Source of the DNA: Geosiphon pyriformis uo1
Taxonomy: Eukaryota > Fungi > Glomeromycota
NCBI GenBank assembly: GCA_016748015.1
Contig: JAAOMT010000348.1
Coordinates: forward strand, 4,441-68,440
Direction: 5' to 3'
DNA: 64,000 bases
Part shown: piece after piece, positions 5,909 through 57,680 of the stretch
How the letters are laid out: every line of letters begins with the position of its first letter
Numbering within the stretch: position 1 is the first letter of the stretch
Program-made: the position numbers and the translations under genes
Notes under the pieces: generated by a model
Databases searched by the model: none
The model's input: only the letters and a program-made list of their open reading frames with translations
Told to the model about the DNA's origin: nothing

Positions 5909-6391
5909 TTAAGAGTAAGCTCTGTCAAAATCGAAATTAATTTCTTCATTAAATTCTAAGTTACTATAGTGGTTCAATACTGTGTTATTAATTTGTTGTT
6001 GTAATTCTTGAAATTGCGAGTTAGTAAGTTGTTTAATACTGTTGATTGTTATTATGTTCATGGTTGAGTCCAACAATAGTTTGTGACAGTTTTCAAATGC
6101 TTTGAAAATTCTGTAAACTGTTTTTGAATGAAATGTAGTATTGGTTTTTCCAAAGTGGCCTGAATGAATATCTGAGTGCATGTTAAATAAGATAGTTTTT
6201 TTTTCATCCATGGTTATAACTCTTAATGAATTATCTGAATTTTGTCGATTTCGGTAATAAAGTATGTGATTTTGGATGAAATAGTGTTTTGCTAATTTTT
6301 AGAGTTTAATTAGCTTTTTTACTGGCATTTCTTTGTCTATTTGTAGTGTTTCCAAGTATTGACTGAGGTTTTTGTAAAGGTAGTTGTTTAT
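5909..6391 (-). pseudogene. Element B integrase N-terminus fused in frame to ORF3 C-terminus
   Basis: MHSDIHSGHFGK (the two His of HHCC) runs directly into TNTTFHSKTVYRIF...FDRAYS*; no DDE core. Confidence 0.8.
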
Positions 6392-6420
6392 TGTTATTGT
6401 GGTGGGTGGGTTGGTGATTT

Positions 6421-7943
6421 TTATGTATGTCTTATTCTTGACAAACAGTCAACATTAGCATTTTTGGTACCTTTTTTGTATTTGATAATATAATTGTATA
6501 GTGCTAACATTTGTGACCATCTGGCATATTTTCTTTTTAGCACTTTCTTGTTATTTAACCAGACCAGATCTCTATGATCTGTAATAATCTCAAAGGATTG
6601 GTACTGTAAATATGTGTCAAAGTGAACACAACTCCAGACTACTGCTAAGCATTCAAGTTTGTGTGCTGCGTAGTTTTGCTCTGCCATACTGAGACTTCTG
6701 CTGGCATAAGCAATTATATGTTCTCTTCCATTATTATCTTTTTATAACAGAATGGTTCTAAGTCCAGTTCCAAAGACATCTGTGGCCAAAATGAATTTCT
6801 TGTTGAAATTCAGATAGATTATTATTGGTAATTCAATGAGGTTTTGTCTAAGGTACTCAAAAGCTTTTTGTTGTGCTTTAGTCTATTCAAATTTCACATT
6901 TTTGGATAGTAGGTAATTAAGGAGTTTAACAATGTTTGAAAAGTTTTCTACAAAGCAGTAGTAGTAAGATACGAGTTCTAAAAAACTTCTAACTTCTGAA
7001 ACATTTTGAGATACTGGAAAATTTTTTACTTTGTCTATTTTTGATGGATCTGGTTTTATTCTATCTTTTTCAACTATGTATCCTAAAAATGCTAGCTCAT
7101 TTTTCCCAAAAAAACATTTTTCTAGATTTAGTTTAAGTCCAGCATGTCTCAATCTCTTAAAAACTTGTTGCAATATTGGAGATGATCCGTGAATTTTGAC
7201 AAGAAAACATTTGTATCATTCAAGTAGACAACAATAGATTGGCACAGGATTCTGAAATAAATTATATCCATTAGTCTTTGGAATGTCACAGAAATGTTTA
7301 TCAATCCAAATAGCATTACATTGAACTCATAATTGCCATTTTGTGTTGTGAATGCTGTTTTATGCCTGTTCTTTGGGTCCATTTCCACTTGCCAGTACCC
7401 ACTGGTCAAATCAAGTGTAGAAAACCATTTTGCTTCTTCAAAAATGTCAAAGATTTTGTCAATTAACAGTATTGGGTATGAGTCTTTGGTTGTTTTGCTG
7501 TTTAATTTGTGATAGTCGATGCAAAATCTAATTTTTCTGTTCTTTTTCCTTACTAAAACAACTGGTAAGAACCATGAACTCATTAATGGTTGGATTATTC
7601 CTTTTTCCAATATGCTTTGGACTTTTTCTTTGATAAAATTATGCTTCATTAGTAGGACATGGTAAGCACATTGTTTTTCAGGTCTGGTGTCTCCAGTGGG
7701 AATTTGGTATTGAACCAAGTTGGTTCTTCCAAATTCACTATTTTGTGAAAATATATCAAAGTATTTTAAAATTAATGCTTTTAATTGTTGTTGTTGGTTA
7801 GGATCTATTGTTCCAATGTTTAATTTGGCCAATTCTTCTGGCATAAATTGATAGCATTCCAACGGTTGCTGCCAATTTATTGAAGTGAGTTCATAATAGA
7901 GGGTAATTTCTGGGAAATTTAGAATTTTTTGTGGTGTTGACAC
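6421..7943 (-). pseudogene. pol: Element B reverse transcriptase and RNase H
   Basis: RFCIDYHKLN, LDLTSGYWQV, VYLND (decayed YLDD), NYAAHKLECLAVVW, TDH, NANVDCLSR. Confidence 0.95.
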
Positions 7944-13639: not shown

Positions 13640-15009
13640 TTGTTGTCAATAATAATAATTGGTTCCAGATTTTGTGGAATCTTATCTGGTTGAACTAGTA
13701 TTCTCTGTACTTTTAATTGTGAAATATTACTGGTGGATGATAGTGTGGTGTTGTGGTATGGTTTCAATCAATTTTCATGTGCTGCTTTGGTTAAAATTTT
13801 GTTGTCCAGTCTTAATTTATAAGCTCCATTTCCTAAAATTTCTTCTATGTGAAATGGTCCATCTTATTTGAGGTCGAATTTTCCATTCCATTGTTTTTCT
13901 ACTTTGGTACAATATAAGAGTACTTTGTTTTCAATCTTGAATTCAACTAGTTTGTCTAGTAGTTGACTATCATGTCTTTTTATCTGTTTCTTTTGTGACT
14001 TTTGAATATTATCAGCTGCTCTTCTTTGTTTGTTTTCCAATGTTTCTATTAAGTCATATGTTCTTCTCAACAATGTTTCTTGAAAATTCTCTTCTGTTAT
14101 TGGTTCAGCTGGATATGTATTAATTTTTCTCTCTACTGGTAATGTTGCTGTTCTCTCATATACTAATTCAAATAGTGTTGCTTATGTAGTATCTTGTTTT
14201 ATTGTCCGATAAGCAAATAATACTAATGATATGAATAAATCCCATTTATCTTGGTTTCCTTAGCTGATCTTAGTAATTGCTTTACACAATGTTCTGTTAA
14301 ATCTTTCAACTAGACTGTTTGTTTGTGGATGGTAGGATGATAATAGTGGTCTTTTAATTCCGAATCTTTGGCTCAATTTTGCCAATATTTTATTCACAAA
14401 ATGAGTTCCTTGGTCTGATAATAATTCTTTTGGACATTCATATTGACAAATCAAATCTTGATGAATGAATTCGGCAATGGATTCTGCATCCACTCTTTGA
14501 ATTGCTTTTGCTTCTGGCCATTTAGTGAGATAGTCTATGGCTACTGCAATATATCTGTTTCCTCTGCTGGTAATTGTTAATGATCTGACTAAATCAATTC
14601 CAATGTGATCAAATGGTTGTCTTACTTTGATTGGTCTTAACAGTTCACTTGGATTTGTTCCTCCTTTTTTTTGACAAGCATCACAATTTTGAACATATTA
14701 GATGATATCTGAATACATTAATGGCCAATAGTATCTTTTTCTGGTTCTTTCCATGGTTGCTTCTTTGTAGAAATGTCCCGCTGTTGGATTTGAGTGCATA
14801 TTGTATAAAATTGTCTCTTTTTCTGGCTCTGTAACTACTCTGGTTGATTGATCTAAATCTTTTTTATTCTTCTGATAAAGTATATTTTGGTAAGTAATAA
14901 AGTATTTTGATTGTTGTTTGATACTATTGCATTCCGATTGAGATAATTTCTCCTTGAACTGTTGAGTATCTATATAATGTTTGAGTTGTTGATATTTTTG
15001 TATGTTCAT
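13640..15009 (-). pseudogene. Element A integrase
   Basis: MHSNPTAGHF...CDAC (HHCC), GIDLV, LLSDQGTHF, HPQTNSLVERFN, DGPFHIEEILGNGAYKL (GPY/F); no chromodomain seen. Confidence 0.95.
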
Positions 15010-15070
15010 TTTTTGTTATATTTTCGTTAGATTTGGTTTGGTTTTGTTATATTTTTGGATTGAAATGTTA

Positions 15071-16330
15071 TTAAATTTGTCTCATTTATGACAAACCGTC
15101 AGCATTTCCGTTGTTTTTTCCTTTTCTATAATATATAATATAAGTATATAGTAAGAGTGCCATTTTCCATCTTGATTGTCTGTCATCTCCAAATTTTTGT
15201 TTTTGGAGTGATGTCAATTCCTTGTGATCTGTATACACCTCAAATTTTTGGCTCAAGTATTCTTTCCATTTCATGACTGCCCAATAAATTGCTAAATGTT
15301 CTAATTCTGGTGTTCCATAATTCTTTTTGGCTGGTGTTAATCCTCAGCTGGCATATGCAACTAAATGTTCTCTTTTATCTGATCTTCTCTGAGATAGTAC
15401 TGCTCCCAATGCTTGACTTGATACATCAGTAATAATGATGAATAGTTTGCTGTGATCTGGATAGATCAATACTGAAGCTTGGATGAGCTTTCTTCTTAAA
15501 ATGTCAAAAGCTTCTTGCTGGGTTTCAGTCCATTTATATTTTATATTCTTGGTTTGAAGATAATTGAGTGGCTGAGCTATTTTAGAAAAATCCTTAATGA
15601 AGCGACAATAATAGCTTGCAAGTCCCAAGAATGATTTTAGTTTCATCACATTGGTAGATACTGGAAAGTTCTTTACTATCTCTATCTTTTCTGGATCTGT
15701 TTTTATGCCATCTTTGCTGACTATATGTCCTAAAAATTTCAATTCTGTTTTTCCGAAAAAGCATTTTGTGGCATTTAACTTTAGTCCTGCTTGCCAGAGT
15801 CTTTCAAATACTTGTTGTAGATGATAGAAATAATCATCAAACATCCTTGAGAATACATTGGTGTTGTCTAAGTATATGACTACTGATTTTCACAATAAGC
15901 TGGTGTAAACAATTTTCATAAGTCATTGAAAGGTGGCTGGGGTATTGGTTAAGCCAAATGACATCACTTCAAATTCAAAATTCTCTTCTCTTGTTATAAA
16001 AGCTGTCTTTTTTTTGTCCGCTGGATCCATGGCTACTTGTCAATAATCACTGTCTAGATCCAGTGTTGAGAACCATTTGTTTCCATTGAAAGCATCAAAT
16101 AACTCTTGAATTCATGGAGTTGGATAGCTGTTTTTACAAGTTACTCCATTGAGCTTTCTATAATCCACACAGAAGTGGATCTTTCTATTCTTTTTACAGA
16201 TGAGTACCACTGGTAATGACCATAGACTTATTAATGACTGAATTAGCCCATTGTCAAGCATTTGATTGATTTCTTGACAGATGATCTTATGGCTGGCTGG
16301 TGGTACTCTGTATGCTCTTTGTTAAATTGG
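15071..16330 (-). pseudogene. pol: Element A reverse transcriptase and RNase H
   Basis: FCVDYRKLN, VIYLDN, FLGHIVS, FLGLASYY, ITDVS, VAYAS, YTDH, NADGLS. Confidence 0.95.
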
Positions 16331-25373: not shown

Positions 25374-26231
25374 TGTTATTTATAGAATATAGAAAAAATA
25401 TTAGTATATAAAATAGCCAATCAGAAATAAATGTAGTAAATATGGAATTCTAAGATTCTTTTTAGAGAAATTGCAGGATTCTAAAAATTTCAAGATTCTT
25501 ATATGAGAAATTGCAGGATTCCAGAATTTTAGGATTCTTCTTAAAAAAATTCCAGAATTCCAGAAATTCCAGGGTTCCTGGTAAGAAGAATTGAAAAATT
25601 GAGGAATCTCAATTATGTATATATAGCAGTAGTAATAGAAGTAAAAAAAAAGACAGACCTTTCAGTTTAGATTTGATTTAAACAATTTTTCTATTTATAA
25701 ATATCAATAAATAATTATTCACTATCTCAATTTATTTTCTACTGTTAACATTTCATGTTGATAATAACTGATATTTAATCATACTGGAACAATAGCTCTT
25801 GATTATAGCTATTGATGGGATACTAACATTTATTGTCTTGGCTTATTTCTTTATTTTTTTCTATTTTCTTTTGTTATTTCTTTGTGTTTTACTAATTAAT
25901 TAAGGATTAAAAAAAACTGAGTTACAGACATCATAGGGACTGATAAAAAACCCATAAAACAAAAATAGAACACTTATAATTGAGAATAGCTTACCAGAAG
26001 GATTACCAGCCATCACACTAAAAAAAAATTCGATAGAATTACAATTCCAAAAGACTACTAACACAACAATTGAATCTCTGTTCATTATACAAAGGACTCA
26101 ACCAAAACTTTCAGACAATCAAAACCTTCAGATACAAACAATCTTTAGATATTATTAACATTAACAAGTAAATTAGCACCAAGTTATGGGTTTGTTATTT
26201 GATTTGAGGTCCCAAATAATAATCTGTAATA
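25374..26231 (+). repeat. Element D 5' LTR
   Basis: TGTTA...TAATA; GAATTCCA-type repeat array followed by TATATATA at 25618-25625. Confidence 0.95.
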
Positions 26232-29200: not shown

Positions 29201-32200
29201 ATGAGCTGATACCAAGTTGGAAATAGAAAAAAACCAAGAAAGAGAAAGAAAAAAAAAAAGAGCTATCATCAGCAATCACTACAAATTATACTCCATATAC
29301 CTATACTCTACTACAACTGTTTAACTATTGCCGACTAAAACTAATATGCATTGATTGTGGCAAGAAATTGTCATTAATGGGCACATGCTATGGCAATGAT
29401 GAAGAATACCCAACAGCAACAAAATTCTATTGTCACTCATGTATTCTTAAATGATTTAGATGACCAAAAAGACAAGAGAAATGGGACAACAAACCATGTT
29501 TGGCTTGCAAAGAAACTCTTTTTAATAAAGAAATGTAGAATAACATTCCTAAAAGAGGAGGAATATGTAACAAATTGTGTCAATACACAATTCTAATCAA
29601 TGACTGGGTACACAAAATAACATCAATAGAAGCAGCCTGAAGAAGAGCAGTAAAACATTTGGATAGATGTCCCCATAATAATAACAAAATATGACACATG
29701 GCACCTGCTAAAATCAAAGGAGCATTACCAAAAGAAATAAAAGTGATTAAAAATAATTCACTAAAACTCATAGAACTCGATTGAGATCCAAATTCAGATA
29801 TTGTACTAGATTCTATATACTCAGAACAATTCTATGAACACTACCAAAAATTAGCACTCACAAGAGAAAAGCAGAAACAATGCTTAAAAGAAATAAACAC
29901 TCAACTATGTGACCATTATTTGATTCCATGTGACTTCTAATATTGTAATGAGTATAATTTTATCTATAATTTATCATTACACATGATCTACACAATTCCA
30001 AAAGAAAAAAAACCAATCAACAACTGTGTATTGGAATCAAAAGTACTGTTCAATCTCAATTTAAACTCTGATAATAATGATAACAAAAATAACAGTTTTA
30101 GCTCTATTTAAAATGGCAATAAAAATAACAATAATTCAAGGAACAGAAATTTAAATGGTTCAGCAATAATAATAAAAGTATTATGCCAGAATGTACATAT
30201 AATACCAATACAGAATTTAATCTGAGATATCTTAGAAAAAATGCCATCAAATTGGAACCACATTCACGCATCTGCATTGATCTTAAAATAGCACTGGAAA
30301 TCTCAACAACAACAATAGTTCAATTAGCATTTAAGAGTAGTTTAGCAAAAAAGAGAATCAACATCAGAGAAGAAATAATTGATGCAGAATATGTGAAAAA
30401 TATCATTGTAATGCTACAAAATAACTCAAAAAAGGCCTACATAGTAGAGTTAAACAAAAAGATAACACAAACAATATTCTTGCCTCTGGTTAAAATAACT
30501 CAATTAGCATTAGTGAGAAACAGAGAAAAATTAGGTATTATAGCTAAAGGAATACAGGGAATCAGATTCATGAGTAGAATAAATGTACCAATTAATATGG
30601 CAGAAAAAAAAGTTATTGATAAGAGAGAAATTATCTTCAACTATTAATTAATTTTTATTCTATCATATAACCAGTACATATTAGTTATAGAAAGGGGAGT
30701 AAAAAATCAAGCTCAGATTTTTGAAGCAAAAAACTACTATATGTAAACCAAGAAAGATTGGACTTACTAATTTTTACATATCAGCCAAAAGTCTGAAACA
30801 TATTAAAATTTCTATTTACAACACAACAAAAAATGTTCTTGAAATACTAAAAGAAACTACCATCAGATATTTAAGCACTAAAGTTAAAAAACAATTACCA
30901 AACCCCATTTTAGACTTTCTATAACTGTGTAGATATATAAATATTATATTACAAACAATATATGAATAAGAAAAATATTATTTGCTTTAATCAGAACAAT
31001 TGAAACAAATAAACTTGAGAAATCTAAATCCACTATAACATATGTAGCTTAAAATGTTACTCAACAATTTCAATGACATTTTTGCTAGTAAAAACGAATT
31101 TGACAAAACCAACATAATTCAGTATCAGATAAAAACTGAAAATGCAATGCCAATCAAACAGAGAGCATACAGAATACCACTAACAAGCTATAAAATCATC
31201 AAACAAGAGATTAATCAAATATTAGACAATGTGTTAATTCAACTATTAATAAGTTCATGGTTATTACCAGTGGTACTAATCCATAAAAAAAATGGGAAAA
31301 TATGCTTTTGTGTGAACTACTGAAAACTTAATGAAGTAACCAAAAGAGATAGTTACTCAACTCTAAAAATTTAAGAACTGTTTGATGCTTTTGGAGAAAA
31401 AAATTAGTTCTTAACTTTAGACTTAAACAGTAGTTACTGGCAAGTAGTTATGAAACCAGAAGACAAGAAGAAAATGGCTTTTACAACTTTAGAAAAAAAT
31501 TTTGAATTTGAAGTTATGTCATTTGGCTTGATGAATGCTTCTGCCATATTTCAACAGTTTATGAAAATTGTCTATACTGGACTGCTATGGAAATCAGTAG
31601 TCATATATTTAAATAACACTAATGTGTTTTTCAAGACATTTGATAATCATTTGCACTATCCAATAAGTATTTGAAAAACTAAAAAAAGCTGAATTAAAAT
31701 TGAATACAATCAAGTGTTTTTTTGGGAAAACTGAATTCAAGTTTTTGGAACATGTTGTAAGCAAAGATGAAATCAAAACAGATCCAGACAAAATTAAGAT
31801 AGTTAAAAATTTTTTAGTATTCACCAATTTGACTGAATTATAAGCATTCTTGGGATTTGCAAGATACTATTGCCACTTCATTAAAGATTCTCCAAACTGG
31901 TTTAGCTATTATACCAGCTTTAAACAAAGAACACCAAATACAAATAAATAAAAACTCAGCATTAAGCTTTTAACACATTAAGAAAAAAGCTTATTTAAGC
32001 TCCAGTACTAATCTATTTGGATTATAGTAGGCTATTCATAATTACAACTGATGCATCAAGTTAAACATTAAGAGCAATACTATCTTAGAAAAAACTGAAT
32101 GGAAGAGAACACCTAGTAATATATGTTAATTACAGCTTAAATCCAACTGAAAAAAACTATAGAACACCAGCATTAGAATACTTAGCAATTTGTTAGACAG

Positions 32201-32406
32201 TTATAAAATAAAAAAAATACTTGAACCAAAAGTTTGATGTGTATATTGATCATAAAGAACTAACTTTAATCCAAAAGCAAGAATTTAAAGATGATCATCA
32301 TGTTTAATAGAAAATAGAACTTTCACTATTTAATTATATAGTACATTACAAAAAAGAAAAAAAAAATGGAAATGCTAATGGCTTGTCACAAATAAGACAA
32401 ATCTAA
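26296..32406 (+). pseudogene. gag-pol: Element D ORF1: Gag (CCHC 27961-28002), protease (~28620-28950), Cys-rich domain (~29340-29990), dUTPase (30183-30575), RT and RNase H
   Basis: CHYCSKQKHLKINC; LILDSESAGS; IIDAEYVKN; CFCVNY; VIYLNN; TTDAS; YIDH; ends NGLSQIRQI*. Confidence 0.9.
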
Positions 32407-32436
32407 GAATATTTCTACTCAAAAATATAACAAAAG

Positions 32437-33815
32437 ATGAATATACAAAAATATCAACAACTTCAACACTATATTAATATCCAGCAGTTTAAGAAGAAAT
32501 TATCTCCAAAAGAACAAAGCCATATTAAACAACAATCTAAATATTTCATTACTCACCAAGAGATACTTTATTGGAAAAACAGAAAGAATTCAGATCAACC
32601 AACTAAAGTAATTACAAAACCAAAGAAAGAAACAATATTGTTCAATATGCATTCAGATTTAACAGCAGGACATTTTCATAAAGAAATAATCATAGAAAAA
32701 ACCAGAAAAAGATACTATTGGCCATTAATGTATCCAAATATTATTCAATATGTTCAAAATTGTGATGCTTGTCAGAAAAAAAAAAGAACAAAACTCAGCA
32801 AACCATTAAGACCAATTAAAGTGAAACAACTATTTAACCATATTAGAATTGACTTAGTCAAACTATTAACAATAACTAACAAAAAAATAGATATATCACA
32901 GTAGCCATGGATTATCTTATTAAGTGGCCAGAAACAAAAGCCATTTAAAGAGCAGATGCTGAATTCATTGCTAAATTCATTCATCAAGATTTAATTTGTC
33001 AACATGGATGTCTAAAAGAACTACTATCAGATCAAAGAACTTACTTCATAAACAAAATACTAGCAGAACTAAGTCAAATATTTGGAATTAAAAGACCATT
33101 ATCATTATTATATCATTTATAAACAAATGGGTTAGTTGAAAGATTTAACAGAACATTGTGTAAAGCAATTGCCAAAATCAGCCAAGAAACCAGAATGAAT
33201 AAAATTTGTTTATATTATCAATATTATTTGTTTATTGAACAATAAAACAAGACACTACATAAGCAATACTATTTAAATTAGTATATGATAGAACAACAAC
33301 ATTATTAGTTGAGATAAAAGTTAACACATATCCAACAGAACCAATAACTGAAAACAATTTTCAGGAAATATTGCTAAGAAGAACATATAACTTATGGAAA
33401 CTCTAGAAAACAAATGACAAAAAGCAGCTGATAACATTTAAAAGTCACAAAAAAAACAAAAAAAAAACATGATAACTAACTATCAGATAAACCAGTTGAA
33501 TTCAAGATTGGAGACAAAGTACTTTTATATCATACCAAAGCAGAAAAACAATAGAGTAGAAAATTTGACCCCAAATAGAACAGACTATTTCACATAAAAA
33601 AAATTCTAGAAAATGAAGCTTATAAATTAAGGTTAAACAACAAAATTTTAATCAAAACAGCACATGGTAATTGACTGAAATTATATTACCATATAGTATC
33701 ATCACTCACCAATAATATTTCACAATTAAGAGTACAGAGAATACTAGTCCAATCTAATAAAATTCTATAAGATCTAGAACTAATTATTATTATTAACACC
33801 AACATATCAAATTGA
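32437..33815 (+). pseudogene. Element D integrase (separate ORF with own ATG)
   Basis: MNIQKYQQL...MHSDLTAGHF...CDAC, IDLV, LSDQ, NGLVERFN. Confidence 0.92.
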
Positions 33816-34512: not shown

Positions 34513-35364
34513 TGTTATTCATAAAATATAAGAAGAATATTAGTATATAAAATAGCTAATTAGAAATAGATGTAGTAAATATGGAATTTTAAAATTTCTC
34601 TCAGAAAAATTGCAGGATTCCAAGAATTTCAAGATTCTCATATAAGAAATTGCAAAATTGCAGAATTGCAGAATTTCTCTCAAAAAGATTGCAGAATTCC
34701 AGAAATTTCAGAATTTTTGGTAAGAAAAATTGAGGAATTAAGGAATCTCAATTATGTATATATAGCAGTAGTAGTAAAAAAAAAGAACAGACCTCTCAAT
34801 TTAAATTTAATTTAAGCAATCTTCTACATCACAAATATCAATAAATAATTCACTTTCTCAAATTTACTCTCTACTATCAATGCTTTATGTTGATAGTAAT
34901 CAATACTTAATACATTAGAACAATAGCTCTTAATTATGACTATTGATAAAATACTAACTTGCAAATTGCCTTGGCTTATTTTCTTTATCATTTTTTTTAT
35001 CTTTTTTATTTCTTTTTGTTTTATTAATTGATTAATGATTAAAAAATGCTGAATTATAAACGTTATAGGGACTGGTAAAAGACTCATAAAACAAGGGTAA
35101 AACACTCATAATTGAGAATAGCTTACCAGAAGGATTACTGGCCACCATGCTGAAAAAAAAATTTGATAGAATTGCAATTCTAGGAGACTACTGACACAAT
35201 AATTGAATCTTTGTCCATTATACAAAGAACTCAACCAAAATCTTCAAACAACCAAAACTTTCAGATACAAACAATCTTTAGATATTACTAATGTCAACAA
35301 GCAAATTAGCACCAAGTTATGAGTTTGTTATTTGATTTGAAATCCTAAATAATCATCTGTAACA
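34513..35364 (+). repeat. Element D 3' LTR
   Basis: TGTTA...TAACA; near copy of 25374-26231. Confidence 0.95.
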
Positions 35365-37574
35365 ACATTAAAATTTCAATATACAATACAACCAGAAACT
35401 TTATAGAAATATCAAGTAAAACTACTATCAAATACTTAAGTACTGAAGTTGAAAACCAATTACCAATCATTATTTCAAATTTTTTACAACTGTATAGATA
35501 TGTGGATATTATATTACAAACTATATATAAACAAGAAAAATATTATTTCTTATAATCAAAATAATTAAAACAAATAAACTTGAGAAATTAAAACCTATTT
35601 TAATATATGCAACTTAAGATACTACTCAACAATTTCATTAATATTTTTGTCAATAAAAACAAATTTGGTAGAACTGATATTATACAAGACCAGATTAAAA
35701 CTAAAAATGATATGTTAATTAAACAAAAAACATAGAAAGTACTATTTGCTAATCATAAGATTATTCAACAAGAAATCAATTGAATGTTGAACAATAAGTT
35801 AATTTAACTATTAATAAGTTTATGGTTATTATTAGTGATATTTGTTCAGAAGAAAAATAAGAAAATCTGCTTTTGTATAAATTATAAAAAACTTAACAGT
35901 ATTATTTGTAGAGACAGCTATCTAATTCCATAGATCCAAAAACTATTTGACATTTTTGGAGGAAAGAAATAGTTTTCAACATTGGACTTAAATAATGGTT
36001 ACTAACAAATAGTCATGAATTTAGCTGATAAAAAAAAGACAGCATTTACTATCAAAGAAAAAAATTTTGAATTCAGTATTATGCTATTTGGCTTAACTAA
36101 TATTTTAACTATTTTTCAACATCTCATGAAAATTGTTTATACAGAATTACTATGAAAATTAGTAATAATTTATTTTGATAACATTAATATATTCTCAGAA
36201 ACATTTAATGATTATCTTTATTATTTCTAATAAGTGTTTAAAAGATTAAAACAAGTAGAGCTAAAGTTAAATGCCATTAAGTATTTTTTTAGAAAAACTA
36301 AACTCAAGTTATTGGAACATATTGTGAGCAAAAACAGCATAAAAACAAATTCAAACAAGATTAAAATAGACAAAAACTTCTTANNNNNNNNNNNNNNNNN
36401 NNNNNNNNNNNNNNNNNNNNNNNNNNNNNNNNNNNNNNNNNNNNNNNNNNNNNNNNNNNNNNNNNNNNNNNNNNNNNNNNNNNNNNNNNNNNNNNNNNNN
36501 NNNNNNNNNNNNNNNNNNNNNNNNNNNNNNNNNNNNNNNNNNNNNNNNNNNNNNNNNNNNNNNNNNNNNNNNNNNNNNNNNNNNNNNNNNNNNNNNNNNN
36601 NNNNNNNNNNNNNNNNNNNNNNNNNNNNNNNNNNNNNNNNNNNNNNNNNNNNNNNNNNNNNNNNNNNNNNNNNNNNNNNNNNNNNNNNNNNNNNNNNNNN
36701 NNNNNNNNNNNNNNNNNNNNNNNNNNNNNNNNNNNNNNNNNNNNNNNNNNNNNNNNNNNNNNNNNNNNNNNNNNNNNNNNNNNNNGTTGTCAAATAAAAA
36801 AAATACTTAAATTAAAAGTTTGATATATATATAGATTACAAAAAATTAACATTAATCCAAAAGCAAAAATTTGGAAATAATTACTATGTAAAATAAAAAA
36901 TAAAACTATTATTATTTAATTATATTGTATATTATAAAAAATAAAAAAAAATAAAAATACCAATAGTTTGTTATAAATAAGACAAATTTAAACATTTCAA
37001 TCCAAAAATATAACAAAAAATAAACATACAAAAATATTAACAACTTCAACACTATATTAAAACTTAACAGTTTAAGAAAAAATTATCTTAAAAAAAACAA
37101 AACAACATAAAACAACAATCAAAACATTTTATTATTTACTAAAATATACTATATTAAAAAAACAAAAAATATTTAAACCAGTTACTTAAAGTAATTACAG
37201 AACCAGAAAAAGAAACAATACTGTTTAACATGCACTCAGATCCAGTAGCAAAACATTTTTATAAAAAAACAACCATAGAAAAAACCAGAAAAAAATATTA
37301 CTGGCCATTTATGTATTTAAAAATTATCTAATATATTTAAAATTGTGATGCTTATCAAAAAAAAAAGAGAAACAAGATCCAGTAAACTGTTAAAACCAAT
37401 TAAAATAAGACAACTATTTGATTAAATTAGAATTAACTTAGTGAAACCATTAACTATAACTAGTAATAACAATTAATACATAGTAATAATCATAAATTAT
37501 CTCACAAAATAGCCAGAAGCAAAAGCAATTCAAAGAGCAAATACAGAATTTATAGCTGAATTTATTTACCAAAA
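35365..37574 (+). pseudogene. pol: H1 RT, RNase H end and integrase N-half (gap inside)
   Basis: CFCINYKKLN, IYFDN, LLEHIVS, MHSDPVAKHF. Confidence 0.85.
36384..36785. other. Assembly gap (N run)
   Basis: Run of n inside H1 RT/RNase H. Confidence 1.
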
Positions 37575-38363
37575 TATTACTCATAGAATATAGAAATTAA
37601 ATATTAGTACATAAGCCAATCAGAATAGACATAGTAAAAGTGGAATTCCAGGATTTTTTTCAGAAGAATTGCAGGATTCCAGAATTATAGAATTCTCATA
37701 TAAAAAATTACAAAATTTTTGGAATTCTAAGATTCCTAGCTAGAGAATTGAGAAATTCAAAAATAGTTATTATCAACCAAAATAGAATTTTATCAATAAA
37801 ATATCTCTTCAATTCTTTAAATTCATATTATTATCTACTACTTAATCTGTTAGCACAATAGTTTTGATCATGGCTATTAACAAGACACTTATTTTTTATT
37901 TTATTTTCTTTATTTTTTTATTTTTTTTATTTTTTTTTATTTTTTTTTGTTGTTTACTAAATTAATTAAAAAAATTAAACACTAAGTTATTAACGTCAAA
38001 AATAGTCTGGTAAAAGATCAAGAGTATAAAATTTATAAATTAATAAATAGCTTACCAGAAAAACATGACTGCCAGAATAAATCAGCCATCACACTAAAGA
38101 AAAAAATTTGACAGAATAACTATTCTGGAAGGCTATGAACACTAAAACATACCAACTCAAAGATTGAAAAAGAAAATTAAAAACATTATACCAAGATATT
38201 AACATTGAATTTCTGTCTATTATACAAAGAACTTAACCAAAACTTTCAGATTATAAAAACCTTCAAATACAAAATCTTTAAAAACCAACATTATTATATC
38301 AATTGAACACCAAAGTTACAGATTTGTTATTTGTTTCTAAATCCCAAATAATCACTTGTAATA
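37575..38363 (+). repeat. Solo LTR (A-type) in H1 integrase
   Basis: TATTACTCATAG...TGTAATA (decayed termini); flanked by CAAAA on both sides; no internal region. Confidence 0.9.
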
Positions 38364-39478
38364 CAAAATTTGATTTGTTGATATGAATATCCAAAAAAAT
38401 TGTTATCAGACCAGAAAATCCACTTTATGAACAGAATATTAACAAAATTAAGCCAAAAATTTGGAATTAAAAGACTATTATTATTATCATATCATGTATA
38501 AACCAATAATTTAGTCAAAAGATTTAACAGAATATTGTGCAAAGTAATAGCCAAGATTAACCAAAAACATCAAGACAAATAAGATTTATTTATACTACCA
38601 GTATTATTTGCTTATTGGACAATAAAGCAAAATACTACACAAACAATATTATTTAAACTAGTCTATATTAAAACAGCAATATTACAGTTAAGATATATAT
38701 TAATATATATCTAACAAAACCAATAACAGAAGCTAACTTTTAAAAAACATTGCTAAAAAAAACATATGACTTAATAGAAACTTTAAAAAACAAAAGACAA
38801 AAAACAGTTAATAATATATATAAATTACAAACAAAACAAAAAAAATGACATGATAACCAATTATTAGATAAACTAGTCAAATTTAAGATTGAAAACAAAG
38901 TACTTTTATATTGTATCAAAGTAAAAAAACAATAGAATAAAAAATTTGACTTCAAATAGAACAGACTATTTTATATTAAAAAAATTCTAGGAAATAGAGC
39001 TTATAAATTAAGATAAACAACAAAATTTTAGCTAAAGTAACACATAGAAATTAACTAAAATTATAATACAATATAATATTATTATTTACCAATAATATTC
39101 CACAATTGGAAATACAATAAATACTAATTTAACCAAATGAGATTCCACAAAATCTAAAACCAGTTATAATTATTGATACAAACATGTCAAATTGATCTAC
39201 AAAAACAGTATATAAAAAATTAATATATACAATAAAAGCAAGTAAAAAAATGGAAATTACTGACAATATTTTCTCATTTGTACAACAATTATTACAACTT
39301 ATTTAACATCAAAAATCAAGTCTAGAAATTATTATTAACAAACAAGCAATTTAAAATAAAAACAAAAGAATAAATCAAAAATCTCAATATTCCAGATATT
39401 ATATTTCTGGAAATCTAGTAAACAAAATAATAGAAAAAGTGGAAAAGACTCTAAAAACTTCAAGGATAGTAATATTAG
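38364..39478 (+). pseudogene. H1 integrase C-half and start of ORF3 (ATG 39250)
   Basis: LLSDQKIHF, LVKRFN, ILGNRAYKL; then AAAAATG MEITDNIF, cut by element C. Confidence 0.85.
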
Positions 39479-40429
39479 TATTACCAATAAAATTTTAGCT
39501 ATTAATTAGCATGAAATTACCTTCATAATTCCTATTATATATTAGCATATATTATTATTATTTCGATTATTACTTATTATTTAATCAAATTATCAAATAT
39601 TATTACTCAATTAATAAACCAATTTGTACCATAAAAATTAAAATGATCAAATTACACAATACTCTGAACCATTTAATATAGTTAAAATTCGCCGAAATAA
39701 TTAATAGTTTGTACAAATAACTTGTAGTTCACCAAAATATATCTTTAGTTTGCCAAAATTAAAGCAAAGAAAAAAGTGCAAGTTCAAAGACTAGTATTAC
39801 AACAAGTTGTATAAAAAAAAAGCTTTTCTCTTCAAGAAAATGTATCTTTTTATATCATAGTATAGTATTTTACTTTAGATATCTTAATTATAACAAATCA
39901 TTTTTTACAAAAATCAAATAAAAATTAAAATATTCTAAAACCAAATTCTTAAATTATTACACTTAAAATTCTTTTAGCACAATTAACGTTTTGAAATTAA
40001 TTAACTACCAATTTCAATAAACTGTTAGTAACTCCAGGTCTGAATAGAAAATGTTTCTTTTGATAAAATCTTATTTTTTTTACATTTTTTTTATTTTTTT
40101 TCTCTTTTCTTACTATAATTATTAGAGTAGTCTGCAGACAAAATTTCTGTAGAAAAGTTAACTTTCACAGCAAAAGTAACTACACATTTTTAGTAAACTT
40201 CTAGATAAGCAATTCCTGAGAAGAAGTTGACATTTATTACAACATAATTACACAAAAAAACTGGCACAGAATTAGTCATTTTACTTATAAGTTCAGCAGT
40301 TCAAATTATAGAAGATAATTTGAAAATAAATTCAGTTATTGGAGGTTCAACTGCTTCCAAAAAACATAAAATTAGCAACAGACAAACATTAACAACATTC
40401 AAAAAAAAGACCAAAAACCTTTGGTAACA
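39479..40429 (+). repeat. Element C 5' LTR
   Basis: TATTACC...GGTAACA; near copy of 50299-51262. Confidence 0.93.
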
Positions 40430-40901
40430 TTTGGTGCTCTCTCACAGAAATAACATAGCAACAGCAAATTTAAAGTAGTGACCACACCAAACACAATAAC
40501 TCTAAAATATTATCAATCAATTTACATTCACTGCAAGCAAAGATTCAACATTTAAGACGGAATTGAAATTTTTAAGAAATCACTATACCAATATATTAAA
40601 AACTGCATCAACAATTATTTTTTTGGAAACTACAATATTTCAAAAGTCAGAAACAACTTTTACAATATTTTATTGTACTATTTACTATTGAGAACTAAAG
40701 ATTTTAACAGTGAAATACTTGTTACTTACTTTCAAGAACTTAACTTTAACATTATCCAGTACTGTAAAAAAAAGTATCTAGTACAATCCAAATACTTTCT
40801 TAACTTTAAATCAGAAACAGAGACAAGCAACAAAGGCAAAAAAAATTGAAACAACACTCAAAAACTGCTCCAAACACTCTAAGAATACCAAAAACAACTG
40901 C

Positions 40902-41890
40902 TGTTATCAGAGATTTTTGGTCTCTTTTCTTGAATGCTGTTAATGTTAATTTGCTGTTAATATTAATTTGCTGTAAATTTACATTTCCAAGAAGTAGTTG
41001 AACCTCCAGTAACTGAATTTATCTTCAAATTATCTCCTATAATTTGAATTATTGGGCTTATAAGTGGAATGGCCAATTTTTTGCCAGTTACTTTATGTAG
41101 TTCTATTGTAGTAAACATTAACTCTTTCCTAGGAATTGCTTATCTGGAAGCTCACTAAAAATGTGTAGTTACTTTGCTGTGAAAGTCAACTTTTCTACAG
41201 GAATCTTGTCTGTAGGCTACCTTAATAATTATAATAAGAAAAAAAAGAAAAATAAAAGAAATATAAAAGAAATAGAATTTTATCAAGAGAAACGTTTTTC
41301 TATTCAGGCCTGGAGTCACTAACAGTTTATTGAAATTGGTAGCTAATCAATTTCAAAACGTTAGTTGTGTTGAGAGAATTTTAAGTGTGATAATTTAAGA
41401 ATTTGGTTTTTCGAATATTTAATTTTTATTTGAATGTGTAAAAGTGATTTGTTTCAATTAAGATCTCTAAAGTAGAATGCTATAGTAAGATACTATAAGA
41501 AGATACATTTTCTTGAAGAGAGAAGCTCTTCTTTTATATAACTTGTTGTGGTACTAGTTTTTGAACTTGCACTTTTCTCTTTGCTACAATTTGGGTGAAC
41601 TTAAGATATATTTCAGCAAATTTACAAGTTATTTCACTGAACTATTGATTATTTCGGCGAATTTTCATTAATTTCGGCAAATTTTGACTATGTTAAATGG
41701 TTCAGGGTATTGTGTAATTTGATTATCTTAATTTCTAGAGTACAAATCTGATTATTGATTAAGTAATAATATTTAATAATTTGGTTAAATAATAAGTGAT
41801 AATCGAATTAATAATAATGTATGCTAATTAATAATAGGAATTATGAGAGTAATTTCATGCTAGTTAATGACTAAAATTTTACTGGTAACA
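40902..41890 (-). repeat. Solo LTR (C-type), inverted, in element C gag
   Basis: TGTTA...TAACA; perfect TSD CTGC (40898-40901 / 41891-41894). Confidence 0.95.
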
Positions 41891-47400: not shown

Positions 47401-48083
47401 ACAATTAGTGCTGTCAAAAACTTTCAAACTTCCAAAAATACTACAGAGTTACAAAAATTTGTGAAATTAGCCTTATATTATCGAAAATTCATAAAAAAAT
47501 TCTCAGAAATTGCCAAACTCCTTAATTATTTTATCAACAAAAACATGTTATATTAATAAACTAAAAAACAGCAGAAAGTCTTTGAAACTCTCAAAACAAA
47601 ATTAACAACAGCCCCAGTTTTTGTTTATTCAAACTTCAACAAATGGTTTCAACTAGCCATTGATGCTTCACACAGTATTTGGTGCTATTTTATTACAATT
47701 AGATCAAAATAGCCAGAAACAAGTTATTGTTTATATTAGTAAAACACTCAAACCAACAGAATTCAAGTATGGCTCAACTGAATTAGAAGTTGCTGCAATC
47801 ATTTGGGCTTTTAAACACTTTCAATAATACTTGAAAAATAGAAAAAAATTTGATATTATAACTGACAATATTGGTCTCAAATAGCTTAATAAAAAGAAAA
47901 CTGAACAAAGTGCCAAACAGTTTCAATAGAATAACTTCCTAGCAAACTACAAATATATTGTACACTACAAACCAGGAAAACTACACACTAATGTTAACAA
48001 TCTTTCAAGAATGAAACAAGATTAACACTAACAGCAATCTTATCACAACTTATCAACTCATCAACAATAATAACCAAACAACA

Positions 48084-49460
48084 ATAGATTCCAAAAATTA
48101 CAACAACATTAAAAACTATTTGGAAACTTTTACTATGCCAGAAAATTGGTCTTCAAGTGAAAAAAACCGATTACAACATCAATCAAAACAATATTTTATA
48201 CATTACAACAAAATCTATTTTAAAAATTGCAGAAATTTAAACCAATCACTCAGATTAGTACAGGAAAATGAAAAAAAAACAATCTTATACAACATGTACA
48301 CTCATCTATTATCAGCACACTTGGGAAGAGATGAAACAATTCAAAGAACTTTTAAATATTATTTTTAATCCTACATGTAAAAAAACATTTGACAATATAT
48401 AAAATCTTGTAATAATTGTTAAAAAAGAGAAAGAACTTGCTCCACAGAACCTTTAAATTCAATCAAAGTTGGACAATTTTTTAACAGAGTTGGAATTGAT
48501 TTAGTCAGACTATTATCTATTACAACCCAAGAAAATCATTATATTGCAGTTGTAATAAATTATTTCACTAAATAGTCTGAAGCTAAAGTTATTTAAAGAA
48601 CAGATGCAAAATCAGTAGCAAATTTTATTTATAAAGACATTATTTGTAGACATAAATGCTTAATTGAACTTTTATTTGATCAAGGAACCCATTTTGTAAA
48701 CAACTTAATATAAAAAATTTGTAAATAATTCAATGTCAAAAGACTTTTATTATCACTTTATTACCCCTAAACAAATAGACTTTAGAATGTTTCAACAAAA
48801 CATTATATGAATCTTTAGCCAAAGTTTCAACAGATTTTGAACAGGAATGGGATATTTTTATTCTATCAGTGTTATTAACATACAGAAAACTAAAACAAGA
48901 TACTATAAAACACATATCATTTGATTTTATTAATAAAAAAACAGCAAGATTACCAATTAATTTCACAGTGAAAACATATTCAGTACAACCAATCAATGAA
49001 GAAAACTTCTAAAAAACACTCCAAAAAAGGGCCTATACTCTTTTTAGTATACTGGAAGGAAAAAAACAAATAGCAGCCACTCATATTGAACACTTTCAAG
49101 CTTAACAAAAAGAAAGGCATGACAATAAACTGTTACCAGTTGTCAACGAATTTAAAGTTGGAAATAAAATTCTTTTACACAGAACTAAGGCTAAAAAACA
49201 ATAAAGTGAAAAATTTAAACATAAATGGGATAAACCATTTTATATCTACTAAATTTTAGACAATAGATCATACAAGTTAAGACTTAATAACAAAGTACTA
49301 GCAAAAGTTGTATATGGAAATTGATTGAAACATTATCATTTCAGAAACAATTCTAAACCTTTAATTTCACAAATTGGTACATATTTCTTTTTAATTAATC
49401 TTAAAAATATTCTCTGAAATTTAGAACCAATAGTTATAATAAAACAACAACCAAACTTGA
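48084..49460 (+). pseudogene. Element C integrase (separate ORF)
   Basis: MYTHLLSAHLG...CNNC, GIDLV, DQGTHF, WDKPFYI...GPY/F-type tail. Confidence 0.9.
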
Positions 49461-49611: not shown

Positions 49612-50287
49612 ATGATTATTCTCTGAAATATTCAACAAATATTTCAAAAATTAATATTAGCTTTAAAAACACTTCCTGATTTATTCATAATAATTAATGG
49701 AAATCAAATTAATTACACTTAAAAAAAAACCACAACACCAGTAGTAAATAATTTTCAAAATTATTATCCTTATAGAAAAAAAACAAAAGATTACTCTGGA
49801 AATCAATTACCAAAACTTTTGAAACAAGCACTAAAAGAAAACTTTTTATTTGCTCCTATTGACATTCTACCAAATGCCACAATCCAACAAAAACTTCTAT
49901 TATTTTTAATGAACAAAACAATGAACATACTCTTATTTATAGATATTTTCATATTAGAAAAACACTCTATGAATGAAAACTAGAACTTGAAGCAACCAAC
50001 ATTACTCCTGAAGCTATACAAAAACAAATTCACAATAAATTCAAGACAGCAGCTGAACCAACAAATACTTGCTACAAACTTAGAGCAGTATTTAGACTCT
50101 ATGATTTATTCAATACTTGTGAAAACGTCCTACAAAATCTAATACTTCACCCAATAAAGATTCAATACATTGGAAAGCTTACAGAACTAAAATTTCAACA
50201 ATTTTTAGACCAAATCACTTCAATTATCTTGGATTACTATTTTGACATTACAAATAGTGCTTAAACTTTGATAAAGTTCAGTCTTGA
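49612..50287 (+). pseudogene. Element C ORF3, unknown function
   Basis: ATG at 49612; IIINGNQINY...LRAVFRLYDLF...IGKLTELKFQQF...FDKVQS* ending at the PPT. Confidence 0.72.
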
Positions 50288-50298
50288 GGAGAAGATTA

Positions 50299-51262
50299 TG
50301 TTACCAGTAGAATTTTAGCTATTAATTAGCATAAAATTACTCTCATAATTCCTATTATTAATTAGCATATATTATTATTATTTCGATTATCACTTATTAT
50401 TTAATCAAATTATCAAATATTATTATTTAATTAATAACCCGATTTGTATTATAAAAATTAAGATGATCAAATTACACAATATCCTAAACCATTTAATATA
50501 GTTAAAATTCGCCGAAATTGATGAAAATTCGCCAAAATAATCATTAGTTTGTAGAAATAACTTGTAGTTTACCAAAATGTATCTTTAGTTTGCCAAAATT
50601 AAAGCAAAGAAAAAAGTGCAAGTTCAAAGACTAGTACTACAACAAGTTGTATAAAAAAAAAGCTTTTCTCTTCAAAAAAATATATCTTCTTATATCATAG
50701 CATAGTATTTTATTTTAGATATCTTAATTATAACAAATCATCTTTTACACATTCAAATAAAAATTAAATATTCAAAAACCAAATTTTTAAATTATTACAC
50801 TTGAAATTCTCTCAACACAACTAACGTTTTGAAATTGATTAGCTACCAATATCAATAAACTGTTAGTGACTCCAGGTCTGGATAGAAAACGTTTCTCTTG
50901 ACAGAATTCTATTTTTTTTACATTTCTTTTATTTTTCTTTTATTTTTTTATTTACAATTATTAGGGTAGCCTACAGATAAGATTTCTATAAAAGAGTTGA
51001 CTTTCACAGCAAAGTACAATTTTAGTGAGCTTTTAGATAAGCAATTCCTGGGAAAGAGTTGATGTTTACTACAATGTAATTACACAAAGTAACTGGCACG
51101 GAATTGGCCATTTCACTTATAAGTCCAGCAGTTCAAATTATAGGAGATAATTTAAAGATAAATTTAGTTATTGGAGATTTAACTGCTTCCAGAAAACGTG
51201 AAATTAACAACAGACAAACAGTAACAACATTCAAGAAAAAAGACCAAAAACCTCTAATAACA
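50299..51262 (+). repeat. Element C 3' LTR
   Basis: TGTTACC...TAACA; near copy of 39479-40429. Confidence 0.95.
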
Positions 51263-54200: not shown

Positions 54201-56272
54201 AGTAATTTAGTGAAAAAAAAATCAACATTAGAAGAGAAATAATTGATATAGAATACATAGAAAATATCATTGTCATGCTACAAAATAATTCAAAAAAAGC
54301 CTATATTATAAAGCCAAATAAAAAGATAGCACAGGCAATATTCTTACTTTTGGTAAAAATAGCTCAATTAGTTTCAGTGAGAAAAAAAAAAGAACTAGGT
54401 ATCACAGCTAAAGGATTATAGAGATTCGGAGCAACAGGTAAGATAGATATACCAGTCAATATAACAGAGGAAGAAATTGTTGACAAAGAAGAAATTATCT
54501 TAACCCATCAATTAATTTTTATTTCACTATATGACCAGTATATGTTAGCCATAAAAAGGGAAGTAAAAGATCAAACTCAGTTGTTTAAAGCAGAAGCCAT
54601 CATTTGCAAATTAGGAGAGATTGGACTCACTAATCTCTACATATTAGCTAAAAGCCCCAAAAACATCAAAATTCCCATCTACAACACAACTGGAAAGGTC
54701 ATCAAAATACCAAAGAAAACCATTATTAGATATTTAACCACTGAAGTTGAAAATCAACCACCAAACTACATTCCAGATTTTCCACAGCTTTGTGAATATG
54801 TGGACATCACATTACAAACTATTTACAGATGAAGCAAAAGTTATCTGCTCCAACCAGAACAATTGGAACAGATGAACATAAGAAATTTAGACCCACTCCA
54901 ACAGATGCAACTAAAAATGTTACTCAACAAATTCAATGACATCTTTGCCAGTAAAAACAAATTTGGCAGAACCAACATAATTCAGCATCAGATCAAGACT
55001 GGAGATACAATGCCAATTAAACAAAAAGCATATTGAGTACCACCAGCCAGCCATGAGATTATTCATCAAGAAATCAATTGGATGTTAGACAATGGGCTAA
55101 TTCAGTCATCAATGAACCTATGGTTATCACCAGTGGTACTGGTCTATAAGAAAAATAGAAAAATCCGTTTTTGTGTAGACTACCAGAAACTGAATGGAGT
55201 GACAAAAGGAGACAGCTACCCAACTCCAAAAATTCAAGAGCTGTTTGACACTTTTGGAGGAAAAAAATTGTTTTCAACATTGAACTTAGACAGTGGTTAT
55301 TGGCAAGTAGCCATAAAGCTAGAAAATAAAGAGAAAATGGTTTTTACAACACGAAAAAAGAATTTTGAATTTGAAGTAATGCTATTTGGCTTAATGAATG
55401 CTCCAGCAACATTTCAATGGCTTATAGAAATTGTCTATACCAGGCTACTATGGAAATCAGTAGTCATATACTTGAATAACACTAATGTGTTCTCAAAAAC
55501 ATTTGATGATTATCTGCATCATTTCCAACAAGTATTTGAAAGACTCAGAAGAGCCAGATTGAAACTAAATGCAACTAAGTGTTTTTTTGAAAAAACTGAA
55601 CTCAAGTTTTTGGGACATATTATAAGCAAAAATGGTATAAAAACGGATCCAGATAAGATTGCAATAGTAAAGAACTTTCTAGTACTAACTAATCTGACAG
55701 AACTAAGAGTATTTTTGGGATTTATAGGCTATTATTGTCATTTTATTAAGGACTTTTCTAAACTGGCTCAGCCATTTCATCATCTACAAACTAAGAATGT
55801 CAAGTATGAATGGACAGGAGCTCAACAAAAAGCATTTGACACACCAAGACAAAAGCTTATTCAAGCTCTAGTGTTAATGTATCTAGATTACAGCAAACCA
55901 TTCATCATCACCACTAATGCATTAGGCCAAACATTAGAAACCGTACTATTACAGAAAGAACCAGATAGAAGAAAACATCCAGTAGTTTATGCCAGTAGAA
56001 GCTTAAGTTCAGCTAAAAAAAACTATGAAACTTCAGCACTAGAGCATTTAGCAATCTATTGGGCTGTCACCAAATGGAAAAAATACTTAAGCCAAAAGTT
56101 TAATATATATACTAATCACAAAGGGTTGACTTCAATCCAGAAGCAAGAATTTGGAGATGATTGTTATGCAAGATAGAAAATAGCACTATCACCATATAAA
56201 TTTATAGTACATTATAAAAAGGGAAAAGACAATAGAAATGCTGACAGTTTGTCACGAATAAGACAAATCTAA
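51263..56272 (+). pseudogene. gag-pol: Element E ORF1 remainder: gag C-half, protease, Cys-rich domain, dUTPase (54048-54440), RT-RNase H (open 55082-56176)
   Basis: LILDSRSAGSII; DAGFDLRY, ASRSNL; RFCVDYQKLN, NAPATFQ, VIYLNN, VYASRSL; ends DSLSRIRQI*. Confidence 0.92.
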
Positions 56273-56304
56273 AAACATTTCAACCCAAAAAATATAACAA
56301 AAAG

Positions 56305-57680
56305 ATAAATACACAAAAATACCAACAACTTCAGCATTATATAAATACCCAATTGTTTAAGGAGAAATTATTTCAAAAAGAACAAAACAACATAAAACAG
56401 CAATCAAAATATTTTATCAATCATCAAAATATATTTTCCCAAAAAAACCAAAAAAATTTAGACCAACCAACCAGAGTGATTACAGAACCAGAAAAAGAAA
56501 CAATACTGTTCAATATGCACTCAAATCCAACAGCAGAACATTTTTATAAAGAAACAACCATGGAAAGAACTAGAAAAAGATATTATTGGCTATTAATGTA
56601 TCCAGATATTATCTAATATGTTCAAAATTGTAATGCTTGTCAGAAAAAAGGAGGAACAAGACCCAGTAAATCATTAAGATGAATCAAAGTGAAACAACCA
56701 TTCAATCATATCGGAATTGACTTAGTCAGACCATTAACAATTACCAGTAAAGGCAACAAATATATTGTGATAGCCATGGACTATCTCACTAAATGGCCAG
56801 AAGCAAAAGCCATTCAAAGAGCAGATGCAGAATCTGTTGCTAAATTCTTTTATCAAGACTTAATCTGTTAACACAAATATTCAAAAGAACTATTATCAAA
56901 TCAAAGAACTCATTTTGTGAATAGAACATTAGAAGAATTAAGTCAAAGATTTGGAATTAAAAGACCATTGTTATCATCATACTATCTACAAACCAATAGA
57001 TTAGTTGAAAGATTCAATAGAACATTGTGGGAAGCAATTGCCAAAATCAGCCAAAAAAATCAAAATAAATGGGATTTGTTCATATCATCAGTATTATTTG
57101 CTTACTGAACAATAAAGCAAGATACTACACAAACAACACCATTTGAATTAGTATATGATAAGACAGCAACACTACTAGTAGAGATAAAAGTATGAACATA
57201 TCCAAAAAAACCAATAACAGAAGAAAATTTCCAAAGAACATTGTTGAGAAAAACGTATGACCTAATAGAAACACTAGAAAACAGACAACAAAAAGCAGCT
57301 GATAATATCCAAAAGTCACAAGAAAAGCAAAAAGAAAGACATGATAACCAACTATCAGAGAAACCAGTTGAATTCAAGATTGAAGACAAAGTACTTCTAC
57401 ATTGTACCAAAGCAGAAAAACAATAGAGTAGAAAATTTGACCCCAAATGGGACAGACAATTTTACTTAAAAGAAATTCTTAGAAATAGAGCTTATAAATT
57501 AAGGTTGAACAACAAAATTTTAACCAAAGCAGCATATGGTAATCAACTGAAACAATATTACCATATAGTATCATTATCTATCAGTAATATTCCACAACTA
57601 AGAGTACAGAGAATACTAGTTAAACCAGATGAGATTCTATAAGATTTAGAACCAATTATAATCATTGAACCAAACACATA
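56305..57680 (+). pseudogene. Element E integrase (separate ORF)
   Basis: MHSNPTAEHF...CNAC, GIDLV, MDYLTKWPEA, LVERFN. Confidence 0.92.

Follow-up and report, generated by a model that had tools for sequence, protein, structure and literature searches.

Integrase, usually part of Pol in Ty3/gypsy-type LTR retrotransposons, is encoded in the elements described here by a separate gene, which starts at its own ATG beyond a stop codon that closes the RNase H frame. In relatives the stop, the spacer, the independent ATG and the intact integrase domains can all be seen, and we regard it as almost certain that the split of integrase from Pol is real and ancestral. Judging from the sequences of relatives from mycorrhizal fungi and soil, the split is widespread. 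It departs from the cited accounts of usual LTR elements, in which integrase lies within Pol and reaches the particle as part of a Gag-Pol or Pol precursor.

Elements and junctions in the window

The window, the whole stretch of 64,000 nucleotides analysed here, contains dUTPase-bearing Ty3/gypsy-type LTR elements, which self-comparison showed to be nested (copy B within A, copy D within H). Pfam searches of 22 open frames returned Gag, dUTPase, RT, RNase H and integrase domains, with Gag matched in B and integrase following RT-RNase H, and the best match to a solved structure was Ty3 Gag-Pol (7q5b, E 3.8e-51); protease found no match in the decayed window frames scanned and is present in intact relatives. 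Copies D and B have paired LTRs with TGTTA...TAACA ends and 4-nt target duplications (ACAT/ACAT and CCAT/CTAT, respectively). Copy D (+ strand) runs from a 5' LTR that starts with TGTTA (25374..26231, right end approximate, the ACAT duplication flanking the element) through dUTPase (30135-30647) and a decayed RT-RNase H (31174..32403) to an integrase gene with its own ATG (32437..33686), open for 155 codons and then broken, and closes with a 3' LTR ending in TAACA (34513..35364) that is 83% identical to the 5' LTR. Its RT-RNase H frame finishes with the decayed equivalent of the RNase H end motif N-x-x-A-D-x-L-S-R and a four-codon tail (32365..32403), followed by the TAA at 32404..32406 and by a 30-nt, A-rich, ATG-free spacer (32407..32436), which is in frame with integrase and yet contains a second in-frame TAA.

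The sequence-only reading had proposed that in all six copies a TAA falls four codons past the LSR-equivalent motif of RNase H, and that integrase begins anew behind a spacer, at ATG or at its decayed form ATA. Re-reading of the coordinates confirmed the stops (D 32404-32406; A 15071-15073, - strand; E 56270-56272; H1 36989-36991; B 6421-6423, - strand; C 48023-48025), the spacer lengths (30, 61, 32, 28, 29 and 58 nt in the same order) and the starts, which are ATG in D (32437) and A (15009) and ATA in E, H1, B and C. On the - strand, stop and spacer of copy A occupy 15010..15073, the spacer carrying an internal duplication, and its integrase gene (13687..15009) has premature stops; copy B, of a second family, has its stop and G-free spacer at 6392..6423 and an N-terminal integrase remnant at 6134..6391, the remainder being deleted. 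On the + strand, stop and spacer lie at 56270..56304 in E, 36989..37019 in H1 and 48023..48083 in C, which represents a third family, and the integrase genes at 56305..57576 in E, 37020..39013 in H1, where it is decayed and has a similarity gap at about 37590-38357, and 48084..49411 in C, where it is likewise decayed. Every spacer holds 0-2 G and no ATG; decay has also turned the R codon of LSR into TAA in A and H1. Overlap of stop and start, or proximity within about 14 nt, as in SART1 and CHV1, is absent from the six copies. Since D, A, E and H1 belong to one family and their spacers align as one sequence, apart from slips in A-runs and the duplication in A, the window offers three independent junctions and not six. 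The argument that spacers in all frames point to a separate gene is therefore weak inside the window, where slippage of one shared spacer is at work, although it holds in the relatives.

Beyond the integrase of copy C lies the remnant of a further ORF (49914..50306, + strand), with 31% identity to a 230-codon frame that follows integrase in the closest intact relative, L003; copy B shows a weaker match to the same frame at 5930-6151. Very AT-rich tracts at 36227-36823, where the RT-RNase H of H1 is interrupted, and at 1744-2583 are open in most frames on both strands and are likely simple-repeat expansions. A repeat of about 990 nt is present in five copies and in both orientations (39471-40429, 40898-41893, 42240-43223, 50292-51266 and 62385-63371), and these are likely LTRs of the C family, some of them solo. 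A small hairpin with an 8-nt loop covers the LSRI codons before the stop (32383-32400 in D, 56248-56269 in E, with equivalents in A and B); it does not go beyond synonymous shuffles and is not general among relatives (0 of 27 with z < -1.5).

Integrase as a separate gene in intact relatives

The proposal, made from the window, that integrase is encoded apart from Pol and begins at a start of its own found support in intact relatives. A search for longer proteins gave two matches, the best of them an integrase of 433 aa, in which the Met lines up with the ATG of D and A, and a length-limited search with this protein listed 120 stand-alone homologues of 311-453 aa, some of them from Rhizophagus. 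An N-terminal integrase profile was then compared with cluster representatives under no length limit: among the best 150 matches, which were those assessed, profile column 1 is residue 1 of the protein in 97, 23 extend upstream and 30 do not contain the profile start. The top matches are Geosiphon pyriformis proteins, and two proteins of this species resemble families C and B and have Met where the window copies carry ATA, so that the host is likely a fungus of the Glomeromycota.

At the DNA level, relatives were taken from the best 80 of at least 539 confirmed metagenome stretches (L-numbered loci). ATG stands at profile column 1 in 42 of the 42 loci in which the profile matched from its start, and its context is distinctive: a purine at -3 in 86%, as against 162/252 internal Met codons, and G at +4 in 86%, as against 84/252. 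The integrase domains of the relatives are intact (HHCC, DDE and C-terminal), with H72, H79, C109, C112, D139, D199 and E235 invariant in 44/44 and SH3-type matches at the C-terminus. Of 43 loci examined, 26 yielded an RNase H end motif, and every one of these is split, with frames distributed 8/8/10, stops that are TAA (18), TAG (5) or TGA (3), and gaps of -11 to +827; this count includes five near-duplicate pairs and L020, whose stop may be premature, and leaves out as doubtful L067 and L072, which look like decayed fused elements, and L019, L047, L056 and L073, which have no clean start. In seven more distant loci RNase H and integrase are fused. Two elements, L016 and L038, are complete and have separate open frames for Gag, Pol and integrase plus one or two further ORFs, and in L003 the spacer is 24 nt long and free of both G and ATG.

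A sample collected by RT, without regard to integrase, gave the same picture: of its top 75 matches, 60 end past the RNase H motif without integrase, 10 are without integrase and with the motif unmatched, and five carry integrase: three gene models from Rhizophagus clarus, a frog model and a single true fusion. At ranks 76-120 integrase sequence is present in 25 of 45. Viral contigs yielded no RT-RH relative and only three weak integrase-core matches.

The relatives show several further peculiarities. ORFs that follow integrase inside the element occur in L003 (2456-3145), L016 (7458-9179), L010, L018 and L033, with no convincing Pfam match in those scanned. Pol extends some 285-405 aa beyond RNase H in L013 (2-3274), L023 (2-4441), P0364, P0370, P0372, P0382 and P0383, and further still in L038 (3361-6705); the tails of the three loci scanned, L013, L023 and L038, contain no Pfam domain. 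An in-frame stop lies just 5' of the RT frame at L038:3358-3360, L011:870-872 and L041:1585-1587; in L038 it separates Gag-protease from RT-RNase H in an otherwise intact element, and could reflect readthrough, another restart or a mutation. The Pol proteins P0321, P0322, P0323, P0329, P0375 and P0386 have PF00293 (NUDIX according to one source) in place of the dUTPase of the window families. The split also matters for annotation, as gene callers bridge the RNase H-integrase junction by introns that drop the RNase H end: the public fungal gene models P0315, P0316, P0319, P0223, P0225 and P0148 do so at differing places and are likely annotation artefacts.

Decay as an unlikely source of the stop

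The window copies are heavily decayed by C>T and G>A changes (CpG observed/expected 0.02-0.18), and in two of four copies of one family the CGA of LSR has become TAA, so that the Pol stop might be seen as one more product of C>T decay, or as inherited from a dead ancestor. We give this almost no credence, and the intact relatives appear to have largely refuted it already. L016 and L038 are split although their gag, pol and integrase frames are open and their terminal repeats are 100% and 96.8% identical, the same organization is suggested by the 60 RT-first matches that end without integrase, and in trees the window families nest among split elements. The decay rates can moreover be measured: CAA has become TAA at 19/86 sites in D, 4/69 in A and 3/66 in E, and the joint chance of this change at one site in all three is about 6 in 10,000, if they are independent, whereas ATG has become ATA at 13/36, 2/28 and 6/31 sites. 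At such rates ATA starts are expected and an identical stop in all copies is not, and the view that random decay does not give this pattern is borne out by the CAA>TAA rates together with the intact split relatives. When copy E was compared with a public DNA run (3413 contigs), G was found at 56307, that is ATG, in 60% of the depth (47 contigs), and of the seven A>G places in all, none fell at 56271-56272 in the Pol stop. Nor did family members show CAA in place of the stop, there being no T>C at 56270 among the T>C rows listed (six of ten).

An RNA motif in one related lineage

In 15 loci (L023:4460-4506, L008:592-638, L013:3294-3341 and 12 more) a motif is formed by an outer stem, a purine-rich bulge of 11-12 nt, an inner stem of six pairs and a CANNGYGA loop; it ends 6-35 nt 5' of the integrase ATG. 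Across 14 aligned copies, a set that omits L020 for its near identity to L023, pairing holds in 94% of cells and two-sided changes occur in 9 of 12 pairs, including all six of the inner stem, a covariation reached by 0 of 500 shuffles, for a structure derived from the same related sequences; no two-sided change backs a 2-pair pseudoknot. A covariance model finds only the 15 known sites in 364 kb, and its best match in the window is not significant (E 0.16). Rfam gave no match in 16 loci at the gathering score and none at E up to 10 for the L023 motif, and the pattern was matched in neither viral contigs nor prokaryote genomes. Twelve carriers were placed in the integrase tree, where they make up one clade (SH-aLRT 96) together with an integrase of Rhizophagus irregularis, a species in which Gypsy elements are reported as expressed (bioRxiv 10.1101/2021.03.30.436303); two carriers, L013 and L023, have Pol tails of 285-315 aa. 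Candidate roles for the motif are those of a translation element, a nuclease block or a binding site for integrase or Gag.

How integrase may be made

The sequence-only reading had named reinitiation, an internal promoter and a separate transcript as possible routes, and the comparative data favour the first, short of proof. Termination-reinitiation best explains the synthesis of integrase, and we hold it, with modest confidence, to be the likely route of translation. The Pol protein would terminate just past RNase H, and integrase would be a separate cistron on the full-length RNA. In the window families the post-termination 40S would slide over an A/C-rich, G-poor, AUG-free spacer of 24-32 nt (up to about 60 nt) to the first AUG, a step modelled on the proposal for LINE-1 ORF2, and in other lineages stop and start would overlap outright; those with long AUG-rich spacers probably use another route. 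Reinitiation would yield integrase at or below the level of Pol and with no protease cut. The putative way into the particle, suggested by analogy with foamy virus Pol, would be through binding of integrase to its own RNA, to Gag or to RT, rather than as Gag-Pol.

The junctions themselves argue for this mechanism. Eight of 26 overlap or abut (TAATG twice, ATGA once, AUG-n2-stop twice, AUG-n5-stop twice and a 2-nt gap once), and their forms match the AUGnxUGA, UAAUG and AUGA patterns described for coupled termination-reinitiation (PMC5972666). Among the short-tailed Pol proteins of the RT-first sample, 14/60 terminate in [NHYD][GE]-stop, the trace that AUG-nn-stop would leave in the protein (read from protein ends rather than DNA), versus 3/443 at control positions; those with the trace have tails of 4 to 25 aa, and at least three changes are forced on the tree. 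The ORF 3' of integrase is also coupled in L010 (-4) and L018 (-8), where it overlaps the integrase stop. The window families and L003 constitute a class with short A/C-rich spacers that is closest to the LINE-1 model. The 16 short spacers contain 4 ATG versus 11.3 expected, and within the last 50 nt 5' of the integrase start there are 9 versus 26.5, with no depletion further upstream; this is not decisive, because a subgenomic RNA with a short leader fits it equally well. Against reinitiation stand the lack of stop-start overlap at the window junctions and the long, ATG-rich spacers of some relatives (7 ATG in 365 nt in L011, 3 in 278 nt in L059, several in the 727 nt of L038). The TURBS motif 1, UGGGA, occurs upstream of the stop-start once versus 1.0 expected in 41 loci and once versus 1.6 in 39 loci, and no general hairpin 5' of the Pol stop was found across the relatives tested.

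Those long spacers, which are not simply scannable, would be accounted for if integrase were translated from its own subgenomic RNA, whether from an internal promoter, by a splice that joins it to the 5' leader as in foamy virus Pol, or by a nuclease stalling at an RNA structure. We consider this possible though not probable: an ATG depletion limited to the last 50 nt, the conserved structure just 5' of the ATG in 15 loci and the additional ORFs 3' of integrase all agree with it, but the 60 nt before the ATG show no enrichment in 41 loci of YAG (56 vs 59.1 expected), CTRAY (9 vs 9.9) or TATAWA (5 vs 6.4), and it leaves unexplained that the Pol stop is pinned to the AUG despite varying tail lengths. 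Internal ribosome entry at the spacer, independent of Pol translation, is to our mind improbable. A-rich internal ribosome entry occurs in yeast, the window spacers are A-rich and predicted to be largely unpaired, and the structured motif ends close to the ATG, so either might be IRES-like; however, spacer sequences vary across lineages, the eight overlapping or abutting junctions are essentially spacerless, and the motif is absent from the window.

It is most improbable that a Pol-integrase fusion is still made, through readthrough of the stop, a frameshift or a small intron. Four of the 26 junctions, including that of L003, are in frame without an extra stop, and RT-RH runs on into integrase in three gene models of R. 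clarus, but these models do not contain the RNase H end motif and their junctions differ from one to the next. The strict Met in a start context would also be unexplained. Furthermore, 18 of the 26 junctions are out of frame, and extra stops occur in four of the eight that are in frame, and in copy D. A sequence-level search for an intron restoring the fusion came out in favour of a separate ORF, a GT-AG intron that keeps the motif being possible in only 5 of 24 intact junctions and at unrelated places. Fusion routes fail because of these out-of-frame junctions, extra stops and few motif-keeping introns.

Comparison with known elements and origin of the split

The elements resemble Ty3/gypsy elements (Metaviridae, e.g. 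yeast Ty3) in their TG...CA LTRs, target duplication, Ty3-type Gag and RT-RH-IN order, and in an integrase with HHCC finger, DDE core and C-terminal GPY/F-type region; dUTPase before RT is a feature shared with dUTPase-bearing elements of fungi, for which this position has been noted (PMC6431247). They differ in that integrase lies outside Pol, with its own ATG and with further ORFs downstream, whereas Ty3 Pol includes integrase (PMC5911963), and since integrase within Pol belongs to the canonical layout they are better regarded as a variant than as canonical Ty3/gypsy. An enzyme ORF located at or shortly past an upstream stop on one RNA is also found in SART1 (overlapping stop-restart), LINE-1 (63-nt spacer) and the hypovirus CHV1 (UAAUG), all described as cases of termination-reinitiation (PMC5972666; PMC2699510). 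Here, in contrast, the junction is inside the pol region of an LTR element, the upstream ORF is long and itself often behind a frameshift or stop, and the mechanism is a proposal made from sequence. Foamy virus Pol, too, is produced separately from Gag and has to be packaged by a route of its own, through the genomic RNA (PMC7828637); there, however, splicing sets off the whole Pol precursor with integrase kept inside, whereas in the elements described here the break falls between RNase H and integrase, with no enrichment of splice-acceptor or branch-site signals before the integrase ATG. Tat LTR retrotransposons also have a pol-type domain in an ORF of its own within a Ty3/gypsy element, but that ORF encodes an accessory additional RNase H (PMC10508981) and not the essential integrase.

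Ginger1 DNA transposons share with the split elements an integrase of gypsy type that stands alone and carries, ahead of its H2C2 finger, an N-terminal motif of the YPYY type. This motif is described in Ginger1 and some Gypsy lineages, in an account that leaves the route from Gypsy to Ginger1 undecided (PMC2836005), and our integrases begin with a YPYY-like pattern formed by Y6, Y12, P19, Y/F37 and Y45, as read without alignment to the published motif. One protein combining integrase and Ulp1, P0251, has its Met at the same column as the split integrases and groups with two of them (94/93, on a long branch; 92 in another tree), which we take as a lead, coming from a single sequence, to a possible link with Ginger1. 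Unlike Ginger1, the split elements carry LTRs, Gag and an RT directly upstream. Terminal inverted repeats were not seen in them, and the C-terminal Ulp1/OTU domain is missing from the L016 and L038 integrases; it was detected only in P0251 and weakly in P0235.

A quick RT tree needs four changes between split and fused, and a careful integrase tree places 18 of the 21 fused rows to one side of a branch (93/99) and the other three among split rows. The deep branches of both trees are poorly resolved, and the trees do not establish that the split arose only once. At a shallower level, the integrase tree groups the window families with L003 as their nearest intact relative (100/98).

Our searches of openly accessible literature turned up no account in which integrase forms an ORF of its own behind RNase H. 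With a widespread, apparently active group that breaks the integrase-in-Pol rule, it becomes possible to test by what means a third and a fourth cistron are expressed from one eukaryotic RNA, and how an integrase that is not fused to RT finds its cDNA. Speculatively, and with the odds against it, an old fungal group of polycistronic LTR retrotransposons may have freed integrase from Pol and evolved several routes to its expression (stop-start overlap, scanning of an A-rich spacer, and in one lineage a hitherto undescribed RNA fold before the AUG that drives translation or captures integrase for packaging), and it may have been a stepping stone from Gypsy to Ginger1. A survey that took the rve domain as determinant for Ginger DNA transposons (PMC5751038) could, depending on its filters, have counted split integrases as Ginger.

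P0201 (Haliotis asinina), P0228, P0252, P0258, P0261 and P0282 are long proteins with repeated integrase N-terminal/H2C2 modules, to which P0201 and P0228 add C2H2 fingers and P0252 adds THAP and D-Tyr-tRNA deacylase; these are likely domesticated integrase modules. Finally, P0230 (Lichtheimia ornata) and P0277 are stand-alone integrases of 526-546 aa that form a branch of their own.
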